IMG/VR virus record: IMGVR_UViG_3300031853_000013
Coordinates: 1 to 64,000 of that record
Reading direction: 5' to 3' (one strand)
DNA: 64,000 bases
Source of the DNA: a virus
Taxonomy: Duplodnaviria; Caudoviricetes
Part shown: positions 6,418 to 42,780 of the stretch, piece by piece
Numbering within the stretch: the stretch's first letter is position 1
Layout of the letters: every line of letters starts with the position of its first letter
Program-made: the position numbers and the translations under genes
Notes under the pieces: generated by a model
Told to the model about the DNA's origin: nothing
What the model saw: the letters and a program-made list of their open reading frames with translations, nothing else
Databases searched by the model: none

Positions 6418-6458
6418 AATAATTACCTCCTAAATATAAAATTCAGAGTTTCCACTCT

Positions 6459-6483
6459 ATAATGGAGGTTGTCCCGATTGCGA
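6459..6483 (-). promoter_or_regulatory. TCGCA element 2
   Basis: TCGCA ATCGGGA CA ACCTC CATTAT then hairpin AGAGT-GGAA-ACTCT. Confidence 0.8.
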
Positions 6484-6528
6484 AAAACCAAAGGGGCCTG
6501 TATTAGACCCCTAATAGGTTTAAATGTT
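6483..6528 (-). terminator. Hairpin terminator, copy 2 of the 46-bp duplication
   Basis: Identical to 6129-6174; T-tract abuts the TCGCA of element 2. Confidence 0.75.
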
Positions 6529-6530
6529 TC

Positions 6531-6770
6531 TCAAATACCGTTGTCGCCCTTGATGTCCAGATGTCTTGCCAATTTGCCGAGGTATGCCATCAGCTGTAGA
6601 CCAGCACATACAGTTCCCAGCAGCCAGCAATCAGCATACCACCAATCGCAAGACTCATAAAGAATCTCACTAATGGCACAGCCGACTACAAACGCCAGGC
6701 CGATAATGCTCAGCCTAGTAATAATCATACCTACATAATACATTGCCATCTTAAACTTCTTAGTTTTCAT
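6531..6770 (-). CDS. Small two-TM membrane protein
   Basis: Two hydrophobic segments; AAGGAG RBS; cassette context. Confidence 0.7.
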   Translation of the reverse strand: MKTKKFKMAMYYVGMIITRLSIIGLAFVVGCAISEILYESCDWWYADCWLLGTVCAGLQLMAYLGKLARHLDIKGDNGI

Positions 6771-6814
6771 ACTAACAACTCCTTCGATTAGTAATTTAAT
6801 AGGATTTCTCCCTC

Positions 6815-6839
6815 ATAATAGGAGTTGAAAAAGATGCGA
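6815..6839 (-). promoter_or_regulatory. TCGCA element 3 (TCGCAT subclass)
   Basis: TCGCA TCTTTTT CA ACTCC TATTAT. Confidence 0.8.
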
Positions 6840-6907
6840 TAGAAGATTTTTGCGTTAAGCTAGCAGTATGCGACAGCGGAGTTTTTGGTGTAACCATTAA
6901 TATGCAA
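6834..6907. repeat. 34-bp phased repeats upstream of element 3
   Basis: ATGCGA at 6834 and 6868, ATGCAA at 6902. Confidence 0.75.
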
Positions 6908-6978
6908 AAAAAAAACACCCATATATAGCGAAAAAAAGAAAGGAGCAGACCCATAATTGAGCCCACTCCTCGCTTCCT

Positions 6979-7329
6979 TTAAAACTTATTCACTTCCAAA
7001 TCACCAGACACGATAGACTCGAGAGTCTCAGACTTACCGGTCATCTTACCAAGCTCAAAGTAAGCCTCATTCGACTTCTGACCCAATGTTGATCCGTCCT
7101 GCAGACCCTGAATATAGCCGATCGTACGTCCCACGGACAGTGCAAATGCTCCTGCACACATGCCCATGCCGACATAAGCGATCTCCTCATCATGATCGTA
7201 GACGAAATCGACGACCGCGTCCTTAGCCTTCTTAAGACCACCCTTGACCTTGTTCCATACACTGGACTTCTTAGTCTCAGTAACCTCGTCAACCTCTACA
7301 GTCATTTCTTTCAGTTCGTTCTCATTCAT
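6979..7329 (-). CDS. Membrane-anchored cassette protein
   Basis: Basic amphipathic N-terminus, DH motif, TM helix; hairpin plus U-tract at about 6931-6970. Confidence 0.75.
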   Translation of the reverse strand: MNENELKEMTVEVDEVTETKKSSVWNKVKGGLKKAKDAVVDFVYDHDEEIAYVGMGMCAGAFALSVGRTIGYIQGLQDGSTLGQKSNEAYFELGKMTGKSETLESIVSGDLEVNKF

Positions 7330-7376
7330 AGTGAATTCCTCCTTGAATATAAATAAATGTTGAGTGTTTCCACCCT

Positions 7377-7401
7377 ATAATAGGACCTGTCCAGTTTGCG
7401 A
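7377..7401 (-). promoter_or_regulatory. TCGCA element 4
   Basis: TCGCA AACTGGA CA GGTCC TATTAT. Confidence 0.8.
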
Positions 7402-7421
7402 CCCTATCATTATCCTATCTC

Positions 7422-7748
7422 TCACACGATCTTATTTACCTTTACAGTGATATGCTCATTCCCCGCCACACGATAAAGCCATCCAAGCAGCTCCTTACGG
7501 CTCATCTCATCCTTACTTCTGCTGACAAAACCATAATCTACATATCCGTCAACCGGCAATAATGGCTTGTTCCATTCGAGATATGAGTCTTCTACCGCGC
7601 CATAGATCTTGTCTCCTCGTGCATATCCTTGAACAGACCTAATGTGAATATCACCAAAATATACCTTAATAATGAACATGCCATTAAAGTTTTGCAGATC
7701 TTCATCACAAGCTCCAGTCCCATTGAAAAATATTCTAGACCATGTCAT
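7422..7748 (-). CDS. Hypothetical protein
   Basis: GGGAG RBS; co-oriented. Confidence 0.65.
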   Translation of the reverse strand: MTWSRIFFNGTGACDEDLQNFNGMFIIKVYFGDIHIRSVQGYARGDKIYGAVEDSYLEWNKPLLPVDGYVDYGFVSRSKDEMSRKELLGWLYRVAGNEHITVKVNKIV

Positions 7749-7777
7749 TATAGCACTCCCTTTACTTAAATATAAAA

Positions 7778-7886
7778 CCCTCTAGGAGCCTCCAGAATGC
7801 ACTGTATGACACCCAGTACCTACCTGATAAAACTCTCGCAAATCCTCACAGAACGCAATACAACGCAATCTGAGAGCTCCTAGGGG
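7778..7886 (-). other. Long imperfect intergenic hairpin (about 110 nt)
   Basis: CCTAGGAGC..TCAGATTGCGTTGTAT pairs with ATACAGTGCATTCTGG..GCTCCTAG; G-U pairs favour the minus strand. Confidence 0.65.
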
Positions 7887-7990
7887 CATCCTAGACATCG
7901 AAAATTATTTCATTCCAGGAATATAATCGACAGTCTCGCCGTTATCATCATAATAGAAGCAGTCTCTCTTATACAGTTTCATGTGTTTCG

Positions 7991-8431
7991 TCACCCTCCC
8001 AACGTAGGACACGGACAATCCCACTCGTAATCGTCATACTCGATATCTTCGTTTCGTTGGATCTCACCGTTAATGATTTCGACAAGTTGTCCGAATTCCA
8101 TACCTTTCTCGTATGCCTGTACTTTCATATCGACACCGTATTCTTGACACACTGTCCGAAGCTCCTCAGCGTTTATATACCAAGCCGCCTTTAAATGTAA
8201 GAATAGCGTGTGTCCTTCATAAAAGTACATATACTCGTCACACATAATAAAATGACGATTAGTCCCTATAATCCATCGTTCTCCTGTGCCGGAAGTACTA
8301 AAACATAACTCGTCGCCATCATCTTCCACCACAAGTTTGCTTGGTGTCCAGTCAATTCCATCCTCCATGAATCGACGTACATTCTCAAGCGTTCCTCTTA
8401 CCTTCAAAGTTCCTTCGCACCAGTTTGGCAT
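7991..8431 (-). CDS. YubB/DUF1281-like ferredoxin-fold protein
   Basis: MPNWCEGTL N-terminus and KAAW...YEKGMEF. Confidence 0.55.
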   Translation of the reverse strand: MPNWCEGTLKVRGTLENVRRFMEDGIDWTPSKLVVEDDGDELCFSTSGTGERWIIGTNRHFIMCDEYMYFYEGHTLFLHLKAAWYINAEELRTVCQEYGVDMKVQAYEKGMEFGQLVEIINGEIQRNEDIEYDDYEWDCPCPTLGG

Positions 8432-8463
8432 AATTATTTACCTCCAATCAAAATATAAAAGAG

Positions 8464-8487
8464 AAAGGAGCCTGTTTAAGACTCCTT
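8464..8487 (-). terminator. Hairpin containing the stop codon of 8476-8772
   Basis: AAGGAGTC-TTAAACA-GGCTCCTT-TCTCTTTT; 8451-8486 matches 24761-24796 at 35/36. Confidence 0.7.
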
Positions 8488-8772
8488 ATCCTTCTGCATA
8501 TGATCAATTTCTTGGACCATTTTCTCGATCTCAACCAACGCAAACGGATCATCGTGGATTTGACTAAGAATTGTCTCTATAGCACTTTTGTACAACATAG
8601 CTGCGATCTTATCAAGCCCTTTTAGGTCCGATTCTAATGAGCGCATAGCATCATTACTCAACTCACGCATCATCGCCTCGTACATTTCCGGCTCGTCTTG
8701 CTTCAGCTTTGCTACATCATGTGCCATTATAGCCATCTCAGTCATTTCCTCGTTCACTTTGATCTCATCCAT
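8476..8772 (-). CDS. Hypothetical helical cassette protein
   Basis: AAGGAGG RBS; cassette context. Confidence 0.75.
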   Translation of the reverse strand: MDEIKVNEEMTEMAIMAHDVAKLKQDEPEMYEAMMRELSNDAMRSLESDLKGLDKIAAMLYKSAIETILSQIHDDPFALVEIEKMVQEIDHMQKDKES

Positions 8773-8809
8773 AACACATTACCTCCTTGAAATTTGAACA
8801 TAACGTTCT

Positions 8810-8834
8810 ATAAAGAGGGTTGCTTTATTTGCGA
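8810..8834 (-). promoter_or_regulatory. TCGCA element 5
   Basis: TCGCA AATAAAG CA ACCCT CTTTAT. Confidence 0.8.
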
Positions 8835-8840
8835 CAAATA

Positions 8841-11291: not shown

Positions 11292-11340
11292 ACTAATTAC
11301 CTCCAAATTCTAAAATATAAAAGACCAAACAAGAAAAAAA

Positions 11341-11517
11341 AGAAATGATTGGTAGGATTCAACTCACCTACAATTTATTGTTTTAGGTCGTGTCCTTTTA
11401 TGTCTTAGATCCATTTCTAGATCACGGTGAACGCCTTTGCATTAGTCTCCTAGAGCGCCGCTACAGCGACTAACCATATCATTTCTGACTTAGGTTTCTA
11501 GGTCTTCAATCATTTCT
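11341..11517 (-). ncRNA. 177-nt structured ncRNA with tRNA-like 3' end
   Basis: 11-bp terminal stem AGAAATGATTG/CAATCATTTCT starting directly after element 6; GTAGG-TGAGTTGAAT-CCTAC arm stacked on it; GNRA hairpin GATCTA-GAAA-TGGATC; followed by U-tract; no RBS-led ORF. Confidence 0.65.
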
Positions 11518-11542
11518 ATTAAGGGGGTTGCAAAAGTTGCGA
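11518..11542 (-). promoter_or_regulatory. TCGCA element 6
   Basis: TCGCA ACTTTTG CA ACCCC CTTAAT. Confidence 0.8.
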
Positions 11543-11601
11543 CAAATTCTAAAACATAAAAGACTAAAGAGCCATGTATAAAACACGACTCTTTAAAGTC
11601 C

Positions 11602-11853: not shown

Positions 11854-11869
11854 AATATCACCTCCTTCT

Positions 11870-11894
11870 ATTATGGTCCCTGCCCAGTTTGCGA
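11870..11894 (-). promoter_or_regulatory. TCGCA element 7
   Basis: TCGCA AACTGGG CA GGGAC CATAAT. Confidence 0.8.
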
Positions 11895-12108: not shown

Positions 12109-12148
12109 AAATAACAACTCCTTTTAAATTTATTTGGGTTTCCCCTTC

Positions 12149-12173
12149 ATTATAGGAGTTGAAAATCATGCGA
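12149..12173 (-). promoter_or_regulatory. TCGCA element 8 (TCGCAT subclass, upstream repeats to about 12239)
   Basis: TCGCA TGATTTT CA ACTCC TATAAT. Confidence 0.8.
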
Positions 12174-13063: not shown

Positions 13064-13071
13064 TACTTTTA

Positions 13072-14621: not shown

Positions 14622-14664
14622 TTCCTCCTTTTAATATGCGCGGACAGTTCTCTACTGCCCTTCT

Positions 14665-14689
14665 ATTAAGAGGATTGAAAAAGATGCGA
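14665..14689 (-). promoter_or_regulatory. TCGCA element 9 (TCGCAT subclass; second ATGCGA at 14718)
   Basis: TCGCA TCTTTTT CA ATCCT CTTAAT. Confidence 0.8.
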
Positions 14690-16777: not shown

Positions 16778-16794
16778 AAGATCATCTCCTTTCT

Positions 16795-16819
16795 ATTAAG
16801 GAGACTGCTTCGTTTGCGA
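16795..16819 (-). promoter_or_regulatory. TCGCA element 10
   Basis: TCGCA AACGAAG CA GTCTC CTTAAT. Confidence 0.8.
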
Positions 16820-18043: not shown

Positions 18044-18084
18044 ACTAATCTCTCCTTTAAAAATATATTCGGGTTTATCACCCT

Positions 18085-18109
18085 ATAAAGAGAGGTGAAA
18101 AACATGCGA
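18085..18109 (-). promoter_or_regulatory. TCGCA element 11
   Basis: TCGCA TGTTTTT CA CCTCT CTTTAT. Confidence 0.8.
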
Positions 18110-18557: not shown

Positions 18558-19199
18558 TTACTTCACAAAATCGCATGCCTTAATTTTAACAACAAGTCGA
18601 TTACCGAGACGATCGAACAAATCGTTTTCCGGTTTAGCTACAACACCTTCCATAGGAGCATTTCCAATTGTACTCATGGGTCTAGCTTTGACGTATTCCA
18701 CTGCTTCTGGTAAAGTCATCCTTCCAAGAATAGGAACTACTTCCACACCAAAGCATGTGCCGATATCTTCTATGGACTCGCGCTTAAGCCATACATCGCC
18801 GGCCATGACATCGAACATAATAAAAGCGACATCATCTGGCCGATATAGAGAACCATTCTTCTGGATCTTTTTTCCATATCCCTCGCCGTATAATGTAACA
18901 GAACAGCTTCCAAATTTCTGCTCGAATAATTCTTCGGCCTCCAAGGTACAAAATGTCGAGTTCAAATAGTTAACCAAGTCAGACGGAATCTGAGCGCGAT
19001 CAGTTCTGCCGGCAAGTTCTACTCTATGTCCGTCCCAGCAAACACGAATATTGGTTCCATCGATTTTTTCAGTAATGACCCATGGGATATTCCGCAACAT
19101 TTCTACCGTCTCGTTACGATAATATCCCTCAATAAGCTTTTTAGTTCCCTTAACGTCTCGATTAAAGATCGCTTCAATTTTATGATATTCTCTGATCAT
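18558..19199 (-). CDS. Rnl2-family RNA ligase (nucleotidyltransferase domain)
   Basis: Motif I EKIDGTN, LYGEGYG, FIMFDV, EGVVAKP, KIK. Confidence 0.85.
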   Translation of the reverse strand: MIREYHKIEAIFNRDVKGTKKLIEGYYRNETVEMLRNIPWVITEKIDGTNIRVCWDGHRVELAGRTDRAQIPSDLVNYLNSTFCTLEAEELFEQKFGSCSVTLYGEGYGKKIQKNGSLYRPDDVAFIMFDVMAGDVWLKRESIEDIGTCFGVEVVPILGRMTLPEAVEYVKARPMSTIGNAPMEGVVAKPENDLFDRLGNRLVVKIKACDFVK

Positions 19200-21618: not shown

Positions 21619-21657
21619 AGTCAAAACCTCCTTTAATTTAGTTAGGATTTTATTCCT

Positions 21658-21682
21658 ATAAAAGGAGTTGAAAATGATGCGA
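21658..21682 (-). promoter_or_regulatory. TCGCA element 12
   Basis: TCGCA TCATTTT CA ACTCC TTTTAT. Confidence 0.78.
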
Positions 21683-21689: not shown

Positions 21690-22814
21690 TTACTTATTCT
21701 GTCTTGCCCAGGAGTCATTATCGAGTGCTACATATTCAGGATCGCCGGCGTTAGCAATCGCCTCTTCACACTGATCATAAACCTCGTCCAGCTCCTCAGG
21801 ACTCAGATCGTTCTTACCTTTAATGCCCCACTTGATCTTGTCCACAATCACGCCGTCAACGTTGAAATCAAGCACGAGTTTTCTACGAAGATAACCATTG
21901 TTTCGTTCGATAATGTTTCTGAATCTCGGATCGGTGTAGCAGAGATCAATGCCGAAATCGATATACCCGTCGCCATCCGGATTATCCTTGATCCAGCCGA
22001 CAATCTGACCCTCGGGAGTAGGCGTAAGACCGAGCATTGTATAAACGTCATTCAGGAATACGTAGCCGATTCTATTGAGCTTTTCATTAGCGGCTTCCTG
22101 CTGTGCCTGCAGATAAGAAGTGTTCCAGTAGTTGTTGCTGTCATTATTCTGATAGCAAGCAGCATGCTCCTTATCATAGATTCTCGCATACGGGGAGCCC
22201 AATGGGTAGTCAATTTCCTCGGTAGTCTCGAGCACAGTTTCTTCGAGTCCGGTTTCGGGATTAACCTTCTTAACTTCCTTGGTTACTTCCTTAGTGCCAT
22301 ACAGATACTTAGCGTCAAGTTCCTTACCGCCATCCTTGATTACTCTCTGGCGATATACCTTGAACGCACTATCGATAGCCGTATAAGCAGTCAGAAGAGC
22401 TGCATTACGATCTCTCAGGATCTTGTGGCTGAACAGAATAAGCGCGATACCAGTTACGATAAATCCCACGGCCGGTGCGTATTCCTTAGCAACCTTGAGT
22501 CCAGTTCTGATAGCAGTACCAGCAGTCTGACCGTATACAGTCATCTTGTCCTGCTGTGCATCCTGTGCATCATAACCCTTGAGAGTCTCATTATCTACAG
22601 CCTCATCGATTTCTTCGAACTTATCCTTTGCATACTCAACTGCCTCATCTACTTCCTTCTTAAGATCGGCCTTCATAGCATCAACCTTGAGGGTAGCTTT
22701 GCAGGCAAAGAAGATGCCAGCGCCTACAGACAGAATACCAGCACCAATAAGAATCTCCGGTGCAGCTTCCTTGACATTGTCCTTGACTTTAGTCATAAAC
22801 GCATTAAAATTCAT
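21690..22814 (-). CDS. DUF6353-like phage protein
   Basis: APEILIGAGI...YAPA...RNAALLTAY...GYVFLNDVY...VGW; paralog at 36034-36897. Confidence 0.7.
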   Translation of the reverse strand: MNFNAFMTKVKDNVKEAAPEILIGAGILSVGAGIFFACKATLKVDAMKADLKKEVDEAVEYAKDKFEEIDEAVDNETLKGYDAQDAQQDKMTVYGQTAGTAIRTGLKVAKEYAPAVGFIVTGIALILFSHKILRDRNAALLTAYTAIDSAFKVYRQRVIKDGGKELDAKYLYGTKEVTKEVKKVNPETGLEETVLETTEEIDYPLGSPYARIYDKEHAACYQNNDSNNYWNTSYLQAQQEAANEKLNRIGYVFLNDVYTMLGLTPTPEGQIVGWIKDNPDGDGYIDFGIDLCYTDPRFRNIIERNNGYLRRKLVLDFNVDGVIVDKIKWGIKGKNDLSPEELDEVYDQCEEAIANAGDPEYVALDNDSWARQNK

Positions 22815-23235: not shown

Positions 23236-23277
23236 AATTGTTTCCTCCTTTAATATAGTAAGACATCTCTGCCTCCT

Positions 23278-23302
23278 ATAAAGAGAGGTGCTTAGTTTGC
23301 GA
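23278..23302 (-). promoter_or_regulatory. TCGCA element 13
   Basis: TCGCA AACTAAG CA CCTCT CTTTAT; overlaps the stop of the upstream gene. Confidence 0.8.
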
Positions 23303-25958: not shown

Positions 25959-26001
25959 GATAGAACCTCCTTGAAAATTATTCGAAGTCGTACAGACCTC
26001 T

Positions 26002-26026
26002 ATTAAGAACCTTGTCTCTTTTGCGA
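26002..26026 (-). promoter_or_regulatory. TCGCA element 14
   Basis: TCGCA AAAGAGA CA AGGTT CTTAAT. Confidence 0.8.
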
Positions 26027-27080: not shown

Positions 27081-27122
27081 AATGATCTCTCCTTTTATTA
27101 TTAGTAAGGTATATTACCTTCT

Positions 27123-27147
27123 ATTATAGGAGTTGAAAAAGATGCGA
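27123..27147 (-). promoter_or_regulatory. TCGCA element 15
   Basis: TCGCA TCTTTTT CA ACTCC TATAAT. Confidence 0.8.
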
Positions 27148-27503: not shown

Positions 27504-28202
27504 TCATGCATAAGCAATATTCTTTGCTTTGTGCTTCCAGTTGTAAGCGCACTGAGTCGTTACTCCAAACATCTCTACCATCTTAGCATTGCCGAGCTTA
27601 TCATACATGTTCAGAAACGTAATAGCCTCCTGCTTGTTTCTAAACAGCGATTCACGTGTCTTAGCTTTACGATTCTGCAGTCTATATATGAGCTTAGCTT
27701 CGGCATCTTCAGGAATCACTTTAGGCTCGACTTTACATGAGCTGGCACTCTTCTCGACGATCTCATTGTCGTTGTTGGTGATTTCTTTCTTTTCCATAGT
27801 CTCTCCTTTAACTTCTTCCGCCGTGTCATTACTGACGAAGCCAAAATATCTTTTTGTTTCCTGCATAATAACCTCGATAGATTCAGGCGAGAACGTATAA
27901 TAATACTTCGCAAAGAACTTAACATCCTTGGTCTGAATCTGACTGAGAATGATACGGGAAGTAATATCTCCTTTAACAAACACGATATCATGATCAGTGT
28001 ACTCAGACTTATTAGCATTTGTTGTAAGCGGTGCACAAGTGATATGTCCACCGTAATGCTTAATAATTACGTACGGTCTGGTTCCATTGATTACCGTGGA
28101 GCCTTGATTTCTCAGTGCACTAGTAATTTCCTGCGGCTCCTCAACCAGCCATACCTGACCAGTAGCGAATGTAGATGTCCCAAGCTTCTTTTCAATACTC
28201 AT
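27504..28202 (-). CDS. PemK/MazF-like domain protein with C-terminal HTH-like segment
   Basis: GQVWLV...GTRPYVII...CAPLTT...IILSQIQT. Confidence 0.6.
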   Translation of the reverse strand: MSIEKKLGTSTFATGQVWLVEEPQEITSALRNQGSTVINGTRPYVIIKHYGGHITCAPLTTNANKSEYTDHDIVFVKGDITSRIILSQIQTKDVKFFAKYYYTFSPESIEVIMQETKRYFGFVSNDTAEEVKGETMEKKEITNNDNEIVEKSASSCKVEPKVIPEDAEAKLIYRLQNRKAKTRESLFRNKQEAITFLNMYDKLGNAKMVEMFGVTTQCAYNWKHKAKNIAYA

Positions 28203-28823: not shown

Positions 28824-28877
28824 AACATATTCCTCCTTGAAATATTAAAATATTGCTGAGAACTTCCATAGTCCTCT

Positions 28878-28902
28878 ATTATGTAGGCTGTCTATTTTGC
28901 GA
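28878..28902 (-). promoter_or_regulatory. TCGCA element 16
   Basis: TCGCA AAATAGA CA GCCTA CATAAT. Confidence 0.8.
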
Positions 28903-29141: not shown

Positions 29142-29858
29142 TTACCTCCAATTATAAAAGCAGTTAGGCACGTTCATGTATTTTTGTGCCTGCTTATCGT
29201 TTGTCATGGTTTCATAAATATCGTCAAATACCACGGGAATGAGCTCATGCATCTTGACCAACAACGGGCATGTCACTCTATTCATATCAGGATGAGCAGG
29301 ACCCGTAGTATTAGCCGCTCTAAGTTTGAAGAAGTGTCGCCACTCTCTGTAATTACCGGTAACGACAATTTCTGTTTTCACACAGTTTGGAAGTACCGCT
29401 CTGCATTCTTGTGGCGTATGACCGCTATCTCTAAGATAATAGTATGCTGACGCCGCGCTCGTGAGATATTCATCAAACACCTTTTGGTCGTTAAAAGAGG
29501 CGTCGTTGTACCAGAAAGGTCTAATGAATATCAATCCTCCAGCTTTTCCGCCATCATTGTAATCCACGTATCTGGTGCTCTCCTGTGCATACGAGAAATG
29601 TCTATGTCGAACAATCTCATGTGATACTCCTCTATCAGTTTCAAAGCGAACCGATAACATCGAGTGTTCGAGCATAGCTTCATGTCCACGTTTGATAAGA
29701 CCTCTAACGAATCTCTTTGAAATCTCAGGATCGTTATTCGGATTTGCAGCCTCAGACTTGTAGCAGGTTCTCGCAGCTTCCTCAATAAGTGAGTATTCGT
29801 TGCCCTTGATCGGGGTAAGAATGTCTGTATGTGGATCAATAATCATGTGTGCTCCCAT
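29142..29858 (-). CDS. thyX: FAD-dependent thymidylate synthase
   Basis: GHEAMLEH, SHEIVRHRHFSYAQESTRY, NYREWRHFFKLR. Confidence 0.95.
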   Translation of the reverse strand: MGAHMIIDPHTDILTPIKGNEYSLIEEAARTCYKSEAANPNNDPEISKRFVRGLIKRGHEAMLEHSMLSVRFETDRGVSHEIVRHRHFSYAQESTRYVDYNDGGKAGGLIFIRPFWYNDASFNDQKVFDEYLTSAASAYYYLRDSGHTPQECRAVLPNCVKTEIVVTGNYREWRHFFKLRAANTTGPAHPDMNRVTCPLLVKMHELIPVVFDDIYETMTNDKQAQKYMNVPNCFYNWR

Positions 29859-31320: not shown

Positions 31321-32112
31321 TTACTCCTTGACCAAATCGTGAGGTGGCACGTTTGTGATGAACCAAGTATCTCCAAGCTTGTCGTTATCATAAGCCATAT
31401 TGTAAGGTGCAATATCGTCAACACTATCCCATCCGTAGTTGTCAGAAACCTTAAAATACTTGCTTCCGTTACCATGGATCATATGGTATACATCGTTCAC
31501 GGTCAAACATCTTTTAGTTTCAAACGTCTTAATAGCTTCTCCGGCAATATGATAGGCGAGTGAACGCGATGGAATCTCAAGATACTGGCTGAAAGCTGTC
31601 GGTAAGATTCGATCATTATCGCTTCGGAACTGTCTGAGATCTCTGGCTAACGGCAGACCCTCGATGTAATACTTATCTTCATCTGTTCGCACAACCAAAT
31701 TACAAATATCCATGTAATTATACCCGTAGTCAATCATACGATACGGAATGTTCGACATGATTGTTCCATCTTGATCATACTCGATAGCGTCGGACAGAAT
31801 GTCATAAATATCAAGCTCGGTTACTACTCCAGAATCTTCAGCGACTTCAGTGATACGCTGCTGTACATACTTGGCCATCAGATACGAATTGAAATGAACG
31901 TCTGACAGGATAGATACCACCTTGATTTTACTGGTGTCGACCTCGGCAACGTTGCTAACATACTCTACGTCAGACGGTTTTGGTTCAGACTTAAACACGT
32001 TCTTAACCGATTCCTTGACATCGGTGATCTTCGATTTATCAACGTATTTGTCATATACGTGATAAGCGGCTACACCAAGGCCCAGTACTGCCAGTCCAAT
32101 AAGTTTACTCAT
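31321..32112 (-). CDS. Membrane-anchored protein with two copies of a repeated phage domain
   Basis: GVVTELDIYD...YGY and CLTVNDVYH...NYGW. Confidence 0.65.
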   Translation of the reverse strand: MSKLIGLAVLGLGVAAYHVYDKYVDKSKITDVKESVKNVFKSEPKPSDVEYVSNVAEVDTSKIKVVSILSDVHFNSYLMAKYVQQRITEVAEDSGVVTELDIYDILSDAIEYDQDGTIMSNIPYRMIDYGYNYMDICNLVVRTDEDKYYIEGLPLARDLRQFRSDNDRILPTAFSQYLEIPSRSLAYHIAGEAIKTFETKRCLTVNDVYHMIHGNGSKYFKVSDNYGWDSVDDIAPYNMAYDNDKLGDTWFITNVPPHDLVKE

Positions 32113-32737
32113 AATTATTCTCCTTTAAATCAATATATTTCTGAACATCGAGGTTATAAAGTTTCAGAGCCTCGATTAATTCATCTAAGCATTTCGGTCC
32201 GAAACACCTAATTTCCATGAGATGTTTGGGATCAGTCTCGTAAAGCTGCTTTAAATCCTCAATACCATCGCGAGTTAAGCAATGATACAGTCGAACAGAT
32301 AGATTCATTTCTTTGACCGAAGGATTCTCAAATGCACTTTGCTTATGCTCAATGCAATCGTGGTAGCCGTTCAAGTAGCCCTCCCGATAAGCTACATTCG
32401 CACGTTCTCCGGACCTTACTTCAAAGAACATCATAGGCCCTTTAAATACAATAGCACTATTACTAGGTCGTCTAAAAAATCTAGCCACATGTGATAAAAT
32501 CTGCTGTACTCTAGCACTGCTGCGGTCGATTGCATCACCAACTTCTTTCTGGGTTTTGTTATCGCGGTAGTAAAGATTAATTACATCTTGACTACGGTCG
32601 TCCATCGTTGACATGACGTAATAAAACCCTGCCAAAGTGTTGACGCTCGTGTGTTCTTCAGCCTCCTTTTCAGTCCAAGCATACACAACCGACAAGAAAT
32701 TATACGGATAAGGATAATCCGGTTTCTTAGTTCTCAT
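32105..32737 (-). CDS. Sigma-70 region 4 HTH fused to RNA polymerase alpha C-terminal domain
   Basis: MDDRSQDVINLYYRDNKTQKEVGDAIDRSSARVQQILSHVARFFR (sigma4); SVKEMNLSVRLYHCLTRDGI...LMEIRCFGPKCLDELIEAL (alphaCTD). Confidence 0.85.
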   Translation of the reverse strand: MRTKKPDYPYPYNFLSVVYAWTEKEAEEHTSVNTLAGFYYVMSTMDDRSQDVINLYYRDNKTQKEVGDAIDRSSARVQQILSHVARFFRRPSNSAIVFKGPMMFFEVRSGERANVAYREGYLNGYHDCIEHKQSAFENPSVKEMNLSVRLYHCLTRDGIEDLKQLYETDPKHLMEIRCFGPKCLDELIEALKLYNLDVQKYIDLKENNYE

Positions 32738-33328: not shown

Positions 33329-33363
33329 AGTTATTTCCTCCTTTGAAAATATAAAAAGAAAAA

Positions 33364-33479
33364 ATGGAAACACAGCTTTGCGGTCTTCGAACCCGCGTCT
33401 CCTTCACAACATAGTCGTAAAGGCGCATTACCTTTATGCTATTTTGTTACCCGTAATCTCGGGTCGCTGTGTCTCCATC
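33364..33479 (-). ncRNA. tRNA-like RNA 2 (D arm, extended anticodon-less arm, T arm, extra hairpin)
   Basis: 13-bp terminal stem ATGGAGACACAGC/GCTGTGTTTCCAT; TA-GCAT-AAAGGTA-ATGC; CCTTTACGAC-TAT-GTTGTGAAGG; GCGGGTTCGAAGACCGC; U-tract follows. Confidence 0.75.
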
Positions 33480-33951
33480 ATTATAGGACTTGCATAGTTT
33501 GCGAATCACTATTTGTACGGACAGCTCTTCAAGCTCAGCTACTCTACGTGCTTGTTCGATATTATAGTGCCCCACGATATCATAGACAGTCGTTTCGTTG
33601 ACCGCCTTTAACATAGAGTCGTTAAGATTCTCCGCGACATCTCGAATATCATTCGAATTCAGTATCTTCATCGTCGCTATCATGCTCCTCTCGGGTTAGA
33701 TCCCATCTATCAGAGTAGTCAGTAACTCGGTCCAGATAATAGTCAACGGGAATGTAGTCATCACCATACTCATTAGCATCTTCAGCATTCCATCGCAAGC
33801 ACAACGACACATCATCGGGGTCGATGTCCTCTTCGTGACAGAATGTGTCAAATAATGCTACGGCTTCGTCAACGGTTTTAGCACAGAATTCGGTCTCATC
33901 TTGTTTATCATCATCTATCCATTCGAAGTGATAGGTTTTAATGAATGCCAT
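33447..33951 (-). CDS. Two hypothetical genes (33447-33683; 33649-33951 acidic)
   Basis: RBSs; the first runs into element 17 and the ncRNA 5' end. Confidence 0.55.
33480..33504 (-). promoter_or_regulatory. TCGCA element 17
   Basis: TCGCA AACTATG CA AGTCC TATAAT. Confidence 0.8.
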
Positions 33952-36033: not shown

Positions 36034-36897
36034 TTAATTAATAGTATAGTTGTTACTTTCATAGCAGCATCTCGGCTTTGTATCAAGTATGATCTCAAGA
36101 CACGGGATCTCAGTATCAGGAATCTTCGCAGCCGAGAAGTGATACTTAATAAGTTCGCCATTTGCTTCCCAGTAGAAGATGTTACCAACGTCTGTTTCAC
36201 TAACACCTCTACCATGATTTGCGATATTAACTGCCACGGTATTAAAGTCGTACAGCAAATCGTTGAGCATTACCTCTTGGCAGTTATTAATAGCGTGATT
36301 AGCTCGGATGAAGCACTCCTTGACATCTTCAATTCTAGCACTAAAGATCTGTCCTGTCATTGGCGCCATAAATATCGTGTAACTGGTATTGTCTGAAGCA
36401 AAGCGCTTAACTTCATCATCTACCGGAGTGTTCTCAAGCTTCTTTCTTGTTACGGCAGCTTCGATCTCACCAGCCTTCTTCTCTCCGAACTTCTCAATAG
36501 TTTTCTTCTGATACTCCTTTAATGACATATCGGCAATCGTGTACGCTGCTGAAAGAGCTGTCTGACGCTTGTCGCTGATGTAGTCCGAGCCGATAACTGC
36601 TGCACTTGAGAGAATAAAAGATACAGCTGTCGGCCAGTATGCGGGCGTCACTGCCTTGAATGTCTCGAATGGTGTAAGCTTAATGCTACTACGTTCTTCC
36701 TGTGGAATACCTTCTTCGTCGGCCTTTAGTGCCTTAGCCTCATCGATCAGAAGATCAGCCTTAGGCTTAGCATTTACTGCAAATATCACAGTAGTGAAGA
36801 ATCCTGCAATACCTGCTGCCGTAAGAAGTTTTGGGGAGTGCTTAACCAGCGTCTTCACTCCACCATGTGTGATCTCAGTGATCTTCGTTGTGTCCAT
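36034..36897 (-). CDS. DUF6353-like phage protein
   Basis: HSPKLLTAAGIAG...AYWPT...RQTALSAAY. Confidence 0.7.
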   Translation of the reverse strand: MDTTKITEITHGGVKTLVKHSPKLLTAAGIAGFFTTVIFAVNAKPKADLLIDEAKALKADEEGIPQEERSSIKLTPFETFKAVTPAYWPTAVSFILSSAAVIGSDYISDKRQTALSAAYTIADMSLKEYQKKTIEKFGEKKAGEIEAAVTRKKLENTPVDDEVKRFASDNTSYTIFMAPMTGQIFSARIEDVKECFIRANHAINNCQEVMLNDLLYDFNTVAVNIANHGRGVSETDVGNIFYWEANGELIKYHFSAAKIPDTEIPCLEIILDTKPRCCYESNNYTIN

Positions 36898-36932
36898 AAT
36901 AATGGCCCTCCTTAAAATATAAAAAATTAAAA

Positions 36933-37018
36933 GAGATGATAATGCCCCTGGGAATCGAACCCAGTCTATATAGCCATCTACTATATCGCGTCCCGTCCGC
37001 GAATCATTATCATCACTC
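36933..37018 (-). ncRNA. tRNA-like RNA 3 (10-bp acceptor-like stem, non-canonical anticodon loop)
   Basis: GATGATAATG/CATTATCATC; CGCG-GACGGGA-CGCG; TATAG-TAGATGG-CTATA; CTGGG-TTCGATT-CCCAG; no CCA. Confidence 0.8.
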
Positions 37019-37019
37019 C

Positions 37020-37044
37020 ATTATGGAAGTTGCTTAGTTTGCGA
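37020..37044 (-). promoter_or_regulatory. TCGCA element 18
   Basis: TCGCA AACTAAG CA ACTTC CATAAT. Confidence 0.8.
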
Positions 37045-37795: not shown

Positions 37796-37835
37796 ATCCT
37801 AATTCCTCCTTAGAAAAATAAAAGAGAAAGGGGCA

Positions 37836-38117: not shown

Positions 38118-38158
38118 AACAAAATTCCTCCTAAATATAAATTTGGACATTACATCCT

Positions 38159-38183
38159 ATTATAGACCCTGCGCCGTTTGCGA
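38159..38183 (-). promoter_or_regulatory. TCGCA element 19
   Basis: TCGCA AACGGCG CA GGGTC TATAAT. Confidence 0.8.
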
Positions 38184-38564: not shown

Positions 38565-38633
38565 ATCATATACTCCTTTAATTTCGAAAGGCAAAAGGGA
38601 CCTGTTAAAGTCCCCTCGCCTCTGACCATAAAT

Positions 38634-38858: not shown

Positions 38859-38902
38859 AACAAATTCCTCCTATAGAATATAAAGTTTGAACTTATCGTT
38901 CT

Positions 38903-38927
38903 ATTATGAGGGCTGTCTATTTTGCGA
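38903..38927 (-). promoter_or_regulatory. TCGCA element 20
   Basis: TCGCA AAATAGA CA GCCCT CATAAT. Confidence 0.8.
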
Positions 38928-38963
38928 GAAAAAGAGAGCGACATTGAGCCGCCCTCGAACTGC

Positions 38964-39413: not shown

Positions 39414-39463
39414 AATAATTACCTCCTATAAATATGAATTTCAGGATAGCTTTAATGCTACCT

Positions 39464-39488
39464 ATAAAGAGACCTGTCTAGATTGCGA
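39464..39488 (-). promoter_or_regulatory. TCGCA element 21
   Basis: TCGCA ATCTAGA CA GGTCT CTTTAT. Confidence 0.8.
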
Positions 39489-39535
39489 AAGACTAAAGAG
39501 GCCTGTATAGACCCCTTTAAGTCGTCTGCGGTTTA

Positions 39536-39913
39536 TTACTTCAGGATCCGCATATCCCGCAAGATGTCCTCTGTGTATTCGCCAGCACGCTTACGCTGAA
39601 CAAGTTCGGTTCTCTCAGCATTCGTCATGTTCCGCTTGAGCTCCCAATGAAGCCCGGTGGCTGGATCATAGTAGCATTTATCCATGCGATCTTCGTGTCT
39701 GTCTTGTGCACTACCGCGTACGAGTTTAATTAATTTTACCGTACCAGTAGCCGCTCCAATAACGACAGGAAGAGCTCGAACAATCTCGCCACTATGATCA
39801 GCCGTCCATCTGAGAGCCTCATTAGCTCTATTGCTTACCGCGGTTTTGATCTCTGAGATTTTGTCTCGAATCTTATCCTTTGTACTGCGTGTGTCGTTTA
39901 CAATAATTTCCAT
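39536..39913 (-). CDS. Cassette protein with hydrophobic segment
   Basis: WTADH, YYDPATGLHWELKR; RBS 2 nt after element 22. Confidence 0.75.
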   Translation of the reverse strand: MEIIVNDTRSTKDKIRDKISEIKTAVSNRANEALRWTADHSGEIVRALPVVIGAATGTVKLIKLVRGSAQDRHEDRMDKCYYDPATGLHWELKRNMTNAERTELVQRKRAGEYTEDILRDMRILK

Positions 39914-39931
39914 TTACGACACCTCCTTTCT

Positions 39932-39956
39932 ATTATAGAACCTGTCTAATTTACGA
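39932..39956 (-). promoter_or_regulatory. TCGCA element 22 (TCGTA variant)
   Basis: TCGTA AATTAGA CA GGTTC TATAAT. Confidence 0.72.
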
Positions 39957-39988
39957 GAAAAAGAAAGGGGACTTGTGCCCCTCTCTGA

Positions 39989-40441
39989 TCAAATATCACG
40001 ATCAATACAATATCCACTGTGCGTGTAATGTTCCAGATCGAAATACTCGGGATAATCACTGGATCCTCCCAGCATTGCTCCCAGAGAAATTTCGACTCCT
40101 TTATCCTTACACGTTTCGTGAAGTGTCTGCATCTGATCGATAATCCGATCGTCCAGTTCTACAAGTCCTTTCTCTTCCCAAACCTTATCAGTCAGGAGTT
40201 CAATCTTGTCAGCCTTAGTGCCGCTCAAAGTATCAGGGTCGATCTTCGTGAGTTCCTTTAAATCACTCAGTCCTCGCTCCTGGATACTAGCTACCATGCC
40301 GTCTCCCGCCTTCTTCAAAGCAAAGATACCAGCAATACCAGCTCCAACGATAAGAGCTCCAGTGATAACCTGCTCATCATAATCGTCCCACCATTCCTTA
40401 AGTCTTTCCTTGAACGGCTTCTTTTCCTTAGCATTTTTCAT
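39989..40441 (-). CDS. Membrane-anchored cassette protein
   Basis: Start reassigned to MKNAKE downstream of element 23. Confidence 0.75.
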   Translation of the reverse strand: MKNAKEKKPFKERLKEWWDDYDEQVITGALIVGAGIAGIFALKKAGDGMVASIQERGLSDLKELTKIDPDTLSGTKADKIELLTDKVWEEKGLVELDDRIIDQMQTLHETCKDKGVEISLGAMLGGSSDYPEYFDLEHYTHSGYCIDRDI

Positions 40442-40474
40442 AAATATCATTCCTTTCCGAACCGTTTTTGGTTC

Positions 40475-40499
40475 ATTAAGTGAGTTGTCTAAATTGCGA
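40475..40499 (-). promoter_or_regulatory. TCGCA element 23
   Basis: TCGCA ATTTAGA CA ACTCA CTTAAT. Confidence 0.8.
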
Positions 40500-40523
40500 A
40501 AAAAAAAAACAAGGAGGAAGCTG

Positions 40524-40748
40524 TTACACTTCCTCGTTCTCGTAAAACCGCTGTTGTCTGGCAGCCTCTTCAAGTGCCTGTGATAAGTGGTCATACTCTT
40601 TGTAATCATGTCTCTCTGTGCACGGTCCTTCTTCTCGAATCGTGAAGAGATGATACTCAACAAAGTAGCCTTCCTGCCTATCAATCTTAACCTTGAAGAA
40701 TCTACCATCGATCTTAACCTCGTATTTTACAATATTCGTAATAGTCAT
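40524..40748 (-). CDS. Cassette protein in triplicated frame (ends EEV)
   Basis: Shares leader and 3' hairpin with 41949 and 42801 but has an unrelated core. Confidence 0.75.
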   Translation of the reverse strand: MTITNIVKYEVKIDGRFFKVKIDRQEGYFVEYHLFTIREEGPCTERHDYKEYDHLSQALEEAARQQRFYENEEV

Positions 40749-40795
40749 AATTTTCCTCCTTTAATTTCGGGGATCAGCCCTTTGCTTCTCCCTCT

Positions 40796-40820
40796 ATTAA
40801 GAGGATTGAAAATCATGCGA
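40796..40820 (-). promoter_or_regulatory. TCGCA element 24 (TCGCAT subclass)
   Basis: TCGCA TGATTTT CA ATCCT CTTAAT; ATGCAA 33 bp upstream. Confidence 0.8.
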
Positions 40821-40905
40821 GAGCAGAGTTTTGGAGTAACAAGTAGCATGCAAGAACGGCAAAAAACTAAAGAGACCTGTATAGATCCCTTTAGCTCATC
40901 AATAC

Positions 40906-41129
40906 TTACTTGCTATCCTTATTTCTCATGATGATTGAAACCAGGATAAGACATACTGCCACTATCAGGAGCATTTCACTCATTTATTACCATCCTCCTT
41001 TCTGCGCTTCTCAGGCTTAGCTATAACTGCAATGATCAGTGAGATTACATCACGTATAATCGACACTGAGCCTACAATTATCAATGCTAGAAGCACTGCA
41101 AGCACAATCAGTATTGTTTGAATAATCAT
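40906..41129 (-). CDS. Two coupled hydrophobic peptides (40980-41129, 49 aa; 40906-40983, 25 aa), not in ORF track
   Basis: AAAGGAG RBS; MIIQTILIVLAVLLALIIV... and MSEMLLIVAVCLILVSIIMRNKDSK; ATGA overlap. Confidence 0.65.
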
Positions 41130-41166
41130 AAGCTTACTCTCCTTTCTAGTAGTCAATAAGACTCCT

Positions 41167-41191
41167 ATAAAGAGAGCTGTCTAGATTGCGA
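41167..41191 (-). promoter_or_regulatory. TCGCA element 25
   Basis: TCGCA ATCTAGA CA GCTCT CTTTAT. Confidence 0.8.
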
Positions 41192-41225
41192 AAAAAAGAG
41201 AGGCGAGTTGCCACTCCTGCAAATA

Positions 41226-41531
41226 TCAATCGACATACGTAAATCTAGTTGTCAGAATAAAGCCGGTCTTCAAGTCGTAATCATACTCAGTCTGCGTACA
41301 ATTGCTCGGAGATACGACAATAAACGTCTGAACTTCTTCAACGCTGTCGGGATCTTCCCAGTGGCCCTCGCCATACTTATTCGATATTTCCTCCTTCATG
41401 TCTATAATGCCTTGCTCATACCATTTAAGTTCTCTTGTCTCGGTGATTTGTTCTGCGTGACTAGTTGTGTTTCCACATCCTGTACATATAATAGCACATA
41501 TCACCATAATCATAACAAAAGTCTTTTTCAT
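41226..41531 (-). CDS. Putative lipoprotein
   Basis: MKK plus hydrophobic core and lipobox-like CTGC. Confidence 0.7.
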   Translation of the reverse strand: MKKTFVMIMVICAIICTGCGNTTSHAEQITETRELKWYEQGIIDMKEEISNKYGEGHWEDPDSVEEVQTFIVVSPSNCTQTEYDYDLKTGFILTTRFTYVD

Positions 41532-41572
41532 AATGATCGCTCCTTTAATTATAGTAAGGCGTAATACCTTCT

Positions 41573-41597
41573 ATTAAGAGGATTGAACCATTTGCGA
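41573..41597 (-). promoter_or_regulatory. TCGCA element 26
   Basis: TCGCA AATGGTT CA ATCCT CTTAAT. Confidence 0.8.
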
Positions 41598-41639
41598 AAA
41601 AAGAAAGGGGCGTGTTTAGTTTACGCCCCTTTAATAACA

Positions 41640-41861
41640 TCAGTCCTCCTTTTTCGGCTCACCTGCCGGATGCATGATACCGATCTCCCTCTCTTCCTTA
41701 GCGTAGAAAAGCTCAAATTCGTTGATGTACTCCCTCACGTCTCTATCACTGAGCCACACACTTGTGTCAGTGCTGAAACGCTTTTTGTACGCCTCCTTTA
41801 CAGCCTCTTCAAACGCCTTGTCGAGAGCGTTCAGTCTCATTTCTTTTACATGCATATCCAT
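41640..41861 (-). CDS. Small cassette protein
   Basis: GGAGG RBS; terminator AGGGGCGT...ACGCCCCT-TTCTTTTTTT. Confidence 0.7.
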   Translation of the reverse strand: MDMHVKEMRLNALDKAFEEAVKEAYKKRFSTDTSVWLSDRDVREYINEFELFYAKEEREIGIMHPAGEPKKED

Positions 41862-41903
41862 TTAGCATACCTCCAATAAAATATAATTTGGACTTGGTGT
41901 CCT

Positions 41904-41928
41904 ATAATAGGAATTGACCAGTTTGCGA
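41904..41928 (-). promoter_or_regulatory. TCGCA element 27
   Basis: TCGCA AACTGGT CA ATTCC TATTAT. Confidence 0.8.
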
Positions 41929-41948
41929 GAAAAACAAGGAGGAAGCTG

Positions 41949-42167
41949 TTACACTTCCTCGATTTGTACTTGGCAGAGATCAATAAGCCTCTTATCCAAG
42001 GTTCGGGTTTTTGCATCAAATTCTTCTCTGGTTAACTCACCACTCAAATACTGGATCCTCCAGTCGTTGAGTAGATCAGCTATCCGATCTATTAATTGAT
42101 TATTAGCCTTCACCTGCATCGGTCTTACAATCGTCTCTACATATTCCTTCTTAGTCATTATAATCAT
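41949..42167 (-). CDS. Cassette protein (ends EEV); paralog of 42801-43010
   Basis: VKANNQLIDRIADLLNDWRIQYLSG vs VKANDQIVNRIADLLNDIRIEYISG. Confidence 0.8.
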   Translation of the reverse strand: MIIMTKKEYVETIVRPMQVKANNQLIDRIADLLNDWRIQYLSGELTREEFDAKTRTLDKRLIDLCQVQIEEV

Positions 42168-42211
42168 TTCCTCCTTTAGTTTGGGGAGTATAGCCCTTTG
42201 CTTCTCCCTCT

Positions 42212-42236
42212 ATTAAGAGGATTGAAAATCATGCGA
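42212..42236 (-). promoter_or_regulatory. TCGCA element 28 (TCGCAT subclass)
   Basis: Identical to elements 24 and 30. Confidence 0.8.
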
Positions 42237-42304
42237 GGAGCGGAGTTTTGGTGTAGCCAGTAGCATGCGAGAGAAGAGTTTTTGGTACGACCAGTGTTAT
42301 GCGA
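42231..42304. repeat. 34-bp phased repeats upstream of element 28
   Basis: ATGCGA at 42231, 42265, 42299. Confidence 0.8.
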
Positions 42305-42365
42305 TAGGGCAAAAAAGAAAGAGACCTGAAGCCTTTACGACCCCAGGTTCTTCCTTTAGCGTGTC

Positions 42366-42740
42366 TTACTTGTCCGTCTTAAAGAAGTCGCGAACATCAG
42401 TGACCCTGTTCTTGAACCACTTCGGTACGACCTGATCTTGGTCATATACCATCATCAGGAACGTCGACCCGAGTCCAGCTAAAATAGTGGATCCGCCAGC
42501 AATTACAGCATTAGGATCAACTTTCTTCCGCTGGGGTACAGTCTGTGCTACATTTGCACGCTGTTCCGCCAAAACAGTAAGATTGTCAATCGCCCTGCTA
42601 TATTCGCAAGACTGACTCCCTTTCTCAGCCAGAATCTTCGCAGCGTCCTGCTGGGCAACCGCGATCTGTTCGTCCAGTACTTCAAGTACCGTCTTGGGTT
42701 TCTGTGTTTTAGTCTTCTTTTTGAACATTTTCTTGTTCAT
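42366..42740 (-). CDS. Cassette protein with C-terminal hydrophobic segment
   Basis: AGGAGG 1 nt after element 29. Confidence 0.7.
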   Translation of the reverse strand: MNKKMFKKKTKTQKPKTVLEVLDEQIAVAQQDAAKILAEKGSQSCEYSRAIDNLTVLAEQRANVAQTVPQRKKVDPNAVIAGGSTILAGLGSTFLMMVYDQDQVVPKWFKNRVTDVRDFFKTDK

Positions 42741-42755
42741 ATAAAACACCTCCTC

Positions 42756-42780
42756 ATTATAGTCCCTGTCCCGTTTGCGA
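42756..42780 (-). promoter_or_regulatory. TCGCA element 29
   Basis: TCGCA AACGGGA CA GGGAC TATAAT. Confidence 0.8.

Follow-up and report, generated by a model that had tools for sequence, protein, structure and literature searches.

A fixed three-block element, TCGCA-N7-CA-N5-YWTWAT, as the probable promoter of a phage's own single-chain two-barrel RNA polymerase

The single-chain two-barrel RNA polymerases (RNAPs) of phages are believed to be similar to the enzyme from which all cellular RNAPs descend, and how they find their promoters is largely unexplained. YonO of SPbeta, a single polypeptide of ~100 kDa with a DxDGD loop, is a bona fide phage RNAP; one promoter, that of the late operon, has been mapped for it, and its sequence was left undetermined (PMC5467207). 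The non-virion Thermus phage enzymes P23-45 gp64 and P74-26 gp62 have their own promoter motif, mapped by cappable-seq (PMC10770324). A further family, with RNA-dependent RNA polymerase (RdRP)-like motifs and helix-turn-helix motifs at both ends, has been proposed as a putative RNAP and a signature gene of an Actinobacteria-Firmicutes phage group, in a preprint in which the word promoter is absent and no start sites are mapped (10.1101/842583). Here, a member of this last family, 905 amino acids (aa) long, is considered together with a fixed 31-bp unit, TCGCA-N7-CA-N5-YWTWAT-RRRR, found in the viral record IMGVR_UViG_3300031853_000013 (91,112 bp, rated complete by CheckV), bases 1-64000 of which form the window. 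The 33 copies of the unit are probably promoters of the phage's own 905-aa polymerase, with RNA predicted to start right past the TATAAT-like box, and the 31-bp consensus makes the question of promoter finding directly testable. The literature searched, coverage of which was incomplete, yielded no description of a TCGCA-N7-CA-N5-YWTWAT promoter; a paper on phiSASD1 promoters (PMC13722658) was dismissed as a precedent because those promoters are of the ordinary sigma-70 type.

Thirty of the 33 copies lie inside the window and all are on the minus strand, which is home to every credible gene in the whole genome; they are intergenic or clip the last codons of the upstream gene. The pairing of the upstream blocks with the hexamer is strand-specific: the seed TCGCA-N7-CA, blind to the hexamer, has 32 matches on the minus strand and nine on the plus strand, and xWTWAT stands exactly 5 nucleotides (nt) past the CA in 30 of the 32, vs. 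none of the nine. A core matrix adds three variants, one with a TCGTA box at 39956 and two, at genome 88482 and 88348, in which the box is TTGACGTC, for the total of 33. In 30 sites, hexamer positions 3, 5 and 6 are invariant and position 1 is C in 20; the four bases past the hexamer are each a purine in 28-30 of the 30, and information content is high for 4-6 bases. The earlier note had covered 6445-42780; the sites past this range are at 43084 and 238 in the window and at 90475, 88482 and 88348 in the genome. Hairpin-plus-U terminators of the minus strand occupy the same region as the promoters (24 of 25 within 5-43 kb), and ten of them end 6-46 nt ahead of a TCGCA box. The copies in the window, with the Shine-Dalgarno sequence (SD), hairpin or other feature that follows the hexamer, are:

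43054..43084, minus strand: promoter of the TCGCAT class, CTTAAT, then AGAGGGAGAAG; intergenic, just past the last tail-fibre-like gene
42750..42780, minus strand: promoter, TATAAT; SD GAGGAGGTG at 1 nt, ATG at 15 nt; terminator T-run 10 nt upstream
42206..42236, minus strand: promoter of the TCGCAT class, CTTAAT; extra TCGCAT boxes 34 and 68 nt upstream
41898..41928, minus strand: promoter, TATTAT; hairpin GGAC-ACCAA-GTCC at offset 1
41567..41597, minus strand: promoter, CTTAAT; hairpin AAGGT-ATTAC-GCCTT at offset 2
41161..41191, minus strand: promoter, CTTTAT; hairpin AGTC-TTATT-GACT at offset 3
40790..40820, minus strand: promoter of the TCGCAT class, CTTAAT; terminator 46 nt upstream
40469..40499, minus strand: promoter, CTTAAT; hairpin GAACC-AAAAAC-GGTTC at offset 0
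39926..39956, minus strand: promoter with the variant box TCGTA, TATAAT; SD AAAGGAGGTG at offset 2, ATG at 18 nt; terminator T-run 6 nt upstream
39458..39488, minus strand: promoter, CTTTAT; hairpin GGTAGC-ATTAAA-GCTATC at offset 1
38897..38927, minus strand: promoter, CATAAT; hairpin GAAC-GATAA-GTTC at offset 1
38153..38183, minus strand: promoter, TATAAT; hairpin GGATG-TAA-TGTCC at offset 1
37014..37044, minus strand: promoter, CATAAT; ahead of the structured RNA 36925..37019
33474..33504, minus strand: promoter, TATAAT; ahead of the structured RNA 33355..33479
28872..28902, minus strand: promoter, CATAAT; hairpin GAGGACT-ATGGA-AGTTCTC at offset 1
27117..27147, minus strand: promoter of the TCGCAT class, TATAAT; hairpin AAGGTA-ATA-TACCTT at offset 2
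25996..26026, minus strand: promoter, CTTAAT; hairpin GAGGTC-TGTAC-GACTTC at offset 1
23272..23302, minus strand: promoter, CTTTAT; hairpin GAGGCA-GAGA-TGTCTT at offset 2
21652..21682, minus strand: promoter of the TCGCAT class, TTTTAT; hairpin AGGA-ATAAAA-TCCT at offset 0
18079..18109, minus strand: promoter of the TCGCAT class, CTTTAT; hairpin GGGT-GATAA-ACCC at offset 1
16789..16819, minus strand: promoter, CTTAAT; SD AAAGGAG at offset 2, ATG at 17 nt; terminator 45 nt upstream
14659..14689, minus strand: promoter of the TCGCAT class, CTTAAT; extra TCGCAT box 34 nt upstream
12143..12173, minus strand: promoter of the TCGCAT class, TATAAT
11864..11894, minus strand: promoter, CATAAT; SD AAGGAGGTGAT at offset 2, ATG at 16 nt
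11512..11542, minus strand: promoter, CTTAAT; ahead of the structured RNA 11335..11517; terminator 21 nt upstream
8804..8834, minus strand: promoter, CTTTAT; hairpin GAACG-TTA-TGTTC at offset 1
7371..7401, minus strand: promoter, TATTAT; hairpin GGGTG-GAAA-CACTC at offset 1
6809..6839, minus strand: promoter of the TCGCAT class, TATTAT; extra TCGCAT box 34 nt upstream
6453..6483, minus strand: promoter, CATTAT; hairpin AGAGT-GGAA-ACTCT at offset 0; terminator T-run 8 nt upstream
208..238, minus strand: promoter, TATAAT; a tRNA-like gene starts 7 nt past the hexamer

In the TCGCAT subclass, six promoters have one or two extra TCGCAT-containing 34-nt units directly upstream (boxes 42270 and 42304, 14723 and 6873; also upstream of 43084, 40820 and 12173, minus strand). 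A regulator, or the polymerase itself, may bind at these extra boxes. A cruciform or hairpin around the hexamer, of the kind found in N4, was considered, since the pyrimidines ahead of the box and the purines past it seem able to pair, and rejected: complementarity within promoters is not above that between promoters (P 0.87) and reflects composition.

Transcription from sigma-A promoters starts ~6-8 nt past the -10 box, which has a near-invariant -11 A and -7 T and is preceded by TTGACA at 16-18 nt. Judged by its -35 box and -10 hexamer features, the element is not a sigma-A promoter, on three counts: the upstream box is TCGCA; it ends 14 nt ahead of the hexamer in 30/30 strict copies; and the equivalent of the -11 A, hexamer position 2, is not conserved, being A in 14/30 sites and T in 16/30. 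Shifting the register does not help, as no shift restores -11 A together with -7 T.

The position of the start is suggested by what stands right past the hexamer, including three structured non-coding RNAs; a tRNA-like gene follows a fourth copy.

11335..11517, minus strand: structured non-coding RNA of ~177 nt; 11-bp closing stem from offset 0 to the U-tract; minimum free energy (MFE) -47.3 kcal/mol, z -3.3
33355..33479, minus strand: structured non-coding RNA; 14-bp closing stem from offset 0 to the U-tract; MFE -50.7 kcal/mol, z -7.4
36925..37019, minus strand: structured non-coding RNA; closing stem of 10+3 pairs from offset 1 to the U-tract; MFE -32.9 kcal/mol, z -3.6
134..206, minus strand: tRNA-like gene; Rfam tRNA at 45 bits; 6-nt anticodon loop; long T-run at the end

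The z scores set the folding energy against shuffled controls. None of the three structured RNAs matches an Rfam family, the tRNA-like gene being the sole match, and ARAGORN could not name the anticodon of the latter. If RNA synthesis began 6-8 nt past the hexamer, half of each closing stem would be lost. Hairpins tell a similar story: a 5' arm begins at offset 0-2 in 15/33 sites, vs. a mean of 1.06 and a maximum of 5 in 2000 trials in which the 34 nt downstream were shuffled and the conserved purines kept. At six sites the SD begins 0-2 nt past the hexamer, and the start codon follows at 12-19 nt. The promoters of relatives, 204-208 distinct copies taken from 80 metagenomic loci, have purines at offsets 0 and 1 in 99-100% of cases; six distinct copies run from TATAAT directly into AGGAGGTGAT, and in these an ATG, at 13 nt, begins a long reading frame; credible start codons are absent <13 nt past the hexamer (a GTG at 9 nt in one copy was discounted, as it is without clear ribosome-binding spacing). 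Conservation of a perfect ribosome-binding site would make little sense outside the RNA, and we infer that the SD is transcribed. Together, these four independent features place the probable start of the RNA at the first or second base past the hexamer, offset 0 and offset 1 not being distinguishable from each other. The earlier note had placed the start directly past the hexamer on the basis of individual examples, all of which were recovered: the hairpins at 6483, 8834, 21682, 26026, 40499 and 41928 (offset 0-1), the SDs adjoining the hexamer at 11894, 16819, 39956 and 42780 (1-2 nt past it) and the terminal stem at 11517, the base directly past the hexamer. Its proposal gains support from the three closing stems, the hairpin enrichment, the abutting SDs and the AGGAGGTGAT copies of the relatives.

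A candidate reader of the element is encoded outside the window, where a search of the remaining genome for RNAP or sigma subunits, advised by the earlier note, found a predicted single-chain two-barrel RNAP of 905 aa (genome 84,724-87,441, minus strand; L002:2724-5441:-); the genome profile search gave no match to sigma region 2 (Sigma70_r2). The protein carries a DxDGD loop, SGADFDGD, at residues 512-519, invariant in 57 homologues, around which Pfam places a sub-threshold RdRP match; at its C-terminus are matches to HTH_23 (E 1e-10) and to a Sigma70_r4-like domain (E 2e-4). An AlphaFold model built on the 57 homologues has a mean predicted local distance difference test score (pLDDT) of 82, and its Foldseek matches are headed by QDE-1 (E 2e-9), P74-26 gp62 (8f5m; 3e-6) and the phage gp64 RNAP (PDB 8f72; 6e-6), further matches being plant RDR2 and P23-45 gp96, with beta' and Rpb1 subunits following at E >0.01. 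The two-barrel fold is predicted from the model as a whole and from these matches. The alignment reveals a conserved disordered N-terminal motif and two N-terminal helix-turn-helix motifs, which with the C-terminal one make three. T7-type polymerase (PF00940) has no match in the 91-kb genome, a weak negative given that control genomes are equally without one; the polymerase role is filled by the two-barrel enzyme. The polymerase operon is itself preceded by two near-identical tandem promoters with TTGACGTC boxes, L002:6318-6348 and L002:6452-6482 on the minus strand (genome 88318-88348 and 88452-88482); a scan of the polymerase region for sigma-A promoters gave 24 matches vs. 20 expected. The family is very large, with at least 8000 protein clusters matched, and is present in 251/50,697 isolate phage records (~0.5%); its public annotation is mostly 'helix-turn-helix DNA-binding protein' or 'RNA-dependent RNA polymerase'.

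The element and the polymerase occur together in other phages, across a wide range of G+C content:

Metagenomic relative L008: polymerase 66% identical; TCGCA-N7-CA-N5-TATAAT-AG, nine copies in 13 kb
Arthrobacter phage Mudcat (45% G+C, host 63%): polymerase ~50% identical; TCGCG-N7-CA-N5-TATAAT-R, seven copies, all on the gene strand
Streptomyces phage Scap1 (61% G+C): polymerase ~48% identical; TCGCA-N7-CA-N5-TATAGT-GAGACCCCTAC, four copies and a variant ahead of the polymerase operon
Lactococcus phage P092 (33% G+C): polymerase ~38% identical; CA-N5-TATAAT-GA core, ~11 copies, the upstream box being A+T-rich and of another sequence

The Mudcat copies start just past the tail genes, and one stands ahead of the polymerase operon. 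A search of IMG/VR with the bare DNA pattern returned at least 119 stretches; among contigs chosen by the motif alone and at least 20 kb long, the polymerase is encoded in 35/49, and in 20/22 of those at least 90% complete, vs. ~0.5% of isolate phage records. The polymerases of the motif-chosen contigs are just 44-54% identical to the 905-aa protein, so the pair has stayed linked through deep divergence and in phages of different host phyla. A weak hint of co-variation with the upstream box comes from the second N-terminal helix-turn-helix: its recognition helix (NESxVRxLL) is shared by the four TCGCR-type phages that were compared and is different in P092, a single contrast. Variant boxes recur before the polymerase operon: TTGACGTC twice here, ACGCT in Mudcat, ACGCA in Scap1 and TCGTT twice in the 66% relative. 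The suggestion that the initiation machinery is either phage-encoded or a remodelled host enzyme now leans to the former, supported by the 905-aa polymerase and its co-occurrence with the motif, while a remodelled host polymerase is weakened.

If the 905-aa polymerase uses the element, it would bind duplex DNA at the TCGCA box (about -25 to -21) via its helix-turn-helix motifs, possibly also contact the CA (-13/-12), and melt the A+T hexamer (-6 to -1). RNA would be begun with a purine at the first or second base past the hexamer; the 5' end of the transcript would be a short protective hairpin, an SD or the closing stem of a small structured RNA, and the 3' end would be set by a hairpin-plus-U terminator. 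A broader proposal is that the polymerase is self-sufficient and sigma-independent, reads a three-block promoter through fused helix-turn-helix motifs, with TCGCR read by the second N-terminal one, and starts at the first purine, and that this enzyme-promoter pair spans phages of Actinobacteria and Firmicutes; to this we give an even chance.

The layout of the genome bears on these proposals. Its gene content comprises siphovirus-type tail proteins, a terminase, a fused protease-capsid protein, a D5-type primase-helicase and many small genes. A relative has the order primase, single-stranded-DNA-binding protein (SSB), helicase, polymerase, contig end, which indicates that the present record begins at an arbitrary place in the genome; in the biological order the structural genes come first, followed by the small-gene region, the replication genes and, last, the polymerase gene. 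Mudcat and Scap1 have the same gene order as the studied phage; megablast of 8 kb of the window found no match among isolate phages. The 40-kb structural module (genome 43,129-84,106; window 43129-64000 plus L001 and L002) lies directly downstream of the polymerase gene. It contains none of the 33 promoters, a scan with a weaker core matrix gave none that convinces, and it has a single weak terminator; by sequence it looks like one very long transcription unit, which may be reached by read-through across joined genome ends.

Several other features lie along this map. The 357-nt gap from the polymerase operon to the first structural genes holds an inverted repeat with arms of ~28 nt (L002:2160-2290, minus strand), which may mark the packaging site or terminus of the genome. 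Where the tail module ends, there are genes for two large BspA-type leucine-rich-repeat proteins (window 43129-45630 and 46414-48213, minus strand), probably receptor-binding proteins since one has a phage tail-tip domain. Cassette genes at window 27504-28202, 18558-19199, 29142-29858, 21690-22814 and 36034-36897, all on the minus strand, include a PemK/MazF-like domain protein (just under the Pfam cut-off), an RNA ligase, a ThyX thymidylate synthase and two DUF6353 proteins.

Several observations weigh against the assignment of the 33 elements to the phage polymerase. The operon of the polymerase stands behind promoters of the same core, raising the question of what transcribes it first; host recognition of the variant promoters, or delivery in the virion, could possibly supply the first polymerase molecules. 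The structural module beside the polymerase gene has no such promoter, and its counterpart in SPbeta, the late operon, is the target of the phage polymerase (PMC5467207). The phage also encodes a fusion of sigma region 4 with the alpha C-terminal domain (alpha-CTD), a possible actor on the host polymerase, and the hexamer of the relatives is nearly always a perfect TATAAT, the -10 box of the sigma-70 family, which the host holoenzyme could use in principle. Enrichment of 5' hairpins in relatives is weak (15/208 copies vs. 6.6 expected); a family-wide role for them was rejected on this ground, and they are mainly a trait of the studied phage. Co-occurrence may partly reflect common descent, as the motif-sharing phages are related to one another. 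Finally, both the promoter geometry and the activity of the enzyme are deduced from DNA and protein sequences.

Among the alternatives, the one that survives best gives the element to the host: sigma-A holoenzyme would bind YWTWAT and start ~7 nt downstream, helped by a phage factor at TCGCA near -29, much as MotA and AsiA act in T4. The distance from TCGCA to the hexamer resembles the MotA-box geometry of T4 middle promoters, the hexamer is TATAAT-like here and exactly TATAAT in most relatives, and the terminators are of the ordinary hairpin-plus-U type. The candidate helper is the sigma region 4/alpha-CTD fusion that the phage encodes at window 32105-32737 (minus strand), a 210-aa protein with matches to Sigma70_r4 (E 6.5e-8) and RNA_pol_A_CTD (E 5.7e-15) and no sigma region 2. 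However, if RNA began 6-8 nt downstream, 15 hairpins and the closing stems of three RNAs would be cut, and perfect SDs abutting the hexamer would go untranscribed, in the studied phage and in relatives alike. The equivalent of the -11 A is T in half of the sites. The fusion is not a general reader of the motif, because it has no homologue in the 251 polymerase-bearing isolate phages and only three weak partial matches in the 49 motif contigs, vs. 35 for the polymerase. The genome has no match to AsiA or MotA (PF09010, PF09158), and the TCGCR box is kept across hosts of ~35% to >60% G+C, which points to a phage-encoded reader. We regard this use of host sigma-A as unlikely.

A little less probable still is a division of labour in which the two-barrel polymerase serves only the structural module, as YonO does in SPbeta, and TCGCA is read by the host core enzyme with an unrecognised, sigma-like phage protein. 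The 40-kb block past the polymerase gene, without a TCGCA element and with its single weak terminator, would fit such a scheme, given that in SPbeta one promoter suffices for YonO to transcribe all the late genes as an operon (PMC5467207), and divergent phage sigma factors can escape Pfam. Yet sigma region 2 was not detected in the genome, the polymerase is the sole DNA-binding protein seen travelling with the motif across phyla (10.1101/842583), and its three helix-turn-helix motifs would be left without an evident role. It also counts against a sigma-like reader that promoters starting immediately past the -10 element are, to our knowledge, found with no sigma family.

That the element is not a promoter but an RNA processing site or a repressor operator, with 5' ends made by cleavage of read-through transcripts, has very little to recommend it: fixed spacing and strand specificity would suit a protein-binding operator, and the TCGCAT boxes at 34-nt spacing upstream of six elements resemble added binding sites, but ten elements stand 6-46 nt past a hairpin-plus-U terminator, where initiation must occur anew, three structured RNAs and the tRNA-like gene lie between an element and a U-tract with no other promoter, and initiation sites typically have an A+T-rich box with purines behind it.

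Recognition by the phage polymerase, the reading preferred here, sets the element apart from the described systems in different ways. With sigma-A/sigma-70 promoters it shares a TATAAT-like hexamer with an upstream box, and ordinary hairpin-plus-U terminators; it differs in having TCGCA at 14 nt instead of TTGACA at 17, in conserving purines right past the hexamer and not the equivalent of the -11 A, and in a predicted start 0-1 nt past the hexamer vs. 6-8 nt. Appropriation of sigma as by T4 MotA/AsiA is not indicated, as neither protein is matched and the sigma region 4/alpha-CTD fusion does not travel with the motif.

The promoters of T7-type polymerases (T7, T3, SP6) are compact units of fixed length with an A+T-rich, TATA-like end, a start at the next purine and a purine-rich initial sequence; they occur in many copies on one strand, and some of their transcripts have a 5' hairpin at the start. 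In function, the element appears alike: one compact promoter unit and a putative start at a purine past a TATA-like stretch. The enzyme here is of the two-barrel kind, and the promoter is ~31 bp in three spaced blocks vs. a continuous block of 23 bp.

YonO is, like the 905-aa protein, single-chain and phage-encoded and has a DxDGD loop, but the two show no similarity that could be detected by sequence (SPbeta was not among the tblastn matches listed for the 905-aa protein), one late-operon promoter compares with 33 clear-consensus sites in the non-structural region here, and the text of the YonO paper does not mention a helix-turn-helix (PMC5467207), whereas the 905-aa protein has three. The published YonO start-site primers have no exact match among the genomic and viral contigs searched. 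P23-45 gp64 and P74-26 gp62 are single-subunit two-barrel enzymes too, and by Foldseek are the nearest solved phage structures to the 905-aa protein; they are shorter (~590 aa), their promoter motif is G+C-rich and less conserved, the first transcripts of P23-45 are made by a separate virion polymerase, and the text of the paper mentions no helix-turn-helix (PMC10770324). The polymerase of the actinophage supercluster and of Lactococcus and Faecalibacterium phages belongs to the same family as the 905-aa protein, with ~38-50% identity to the Arthrobacter, Streptomyces, Gordonia and Lactococcus proteins, and phages that carry it can be cultivated (Arthrobacter, Streptomyces, Gordonia, Lactococcus). 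If the broader proposal of a self-sufficient enzyme-promoter pair is true, it would provide the first defined promoter code for this enzyme class and a compact orthogonal expression system. Use of the element by the phage polymerase would also explain how the G+C content of these phages can lie so far from that of their hosts. The known kind to which the system belongs is the phage single-chain two-barrel polymerase, here with fused helix-turn-helix motifs and a sharply defined three-block promoter for which the literature searched gave no description.

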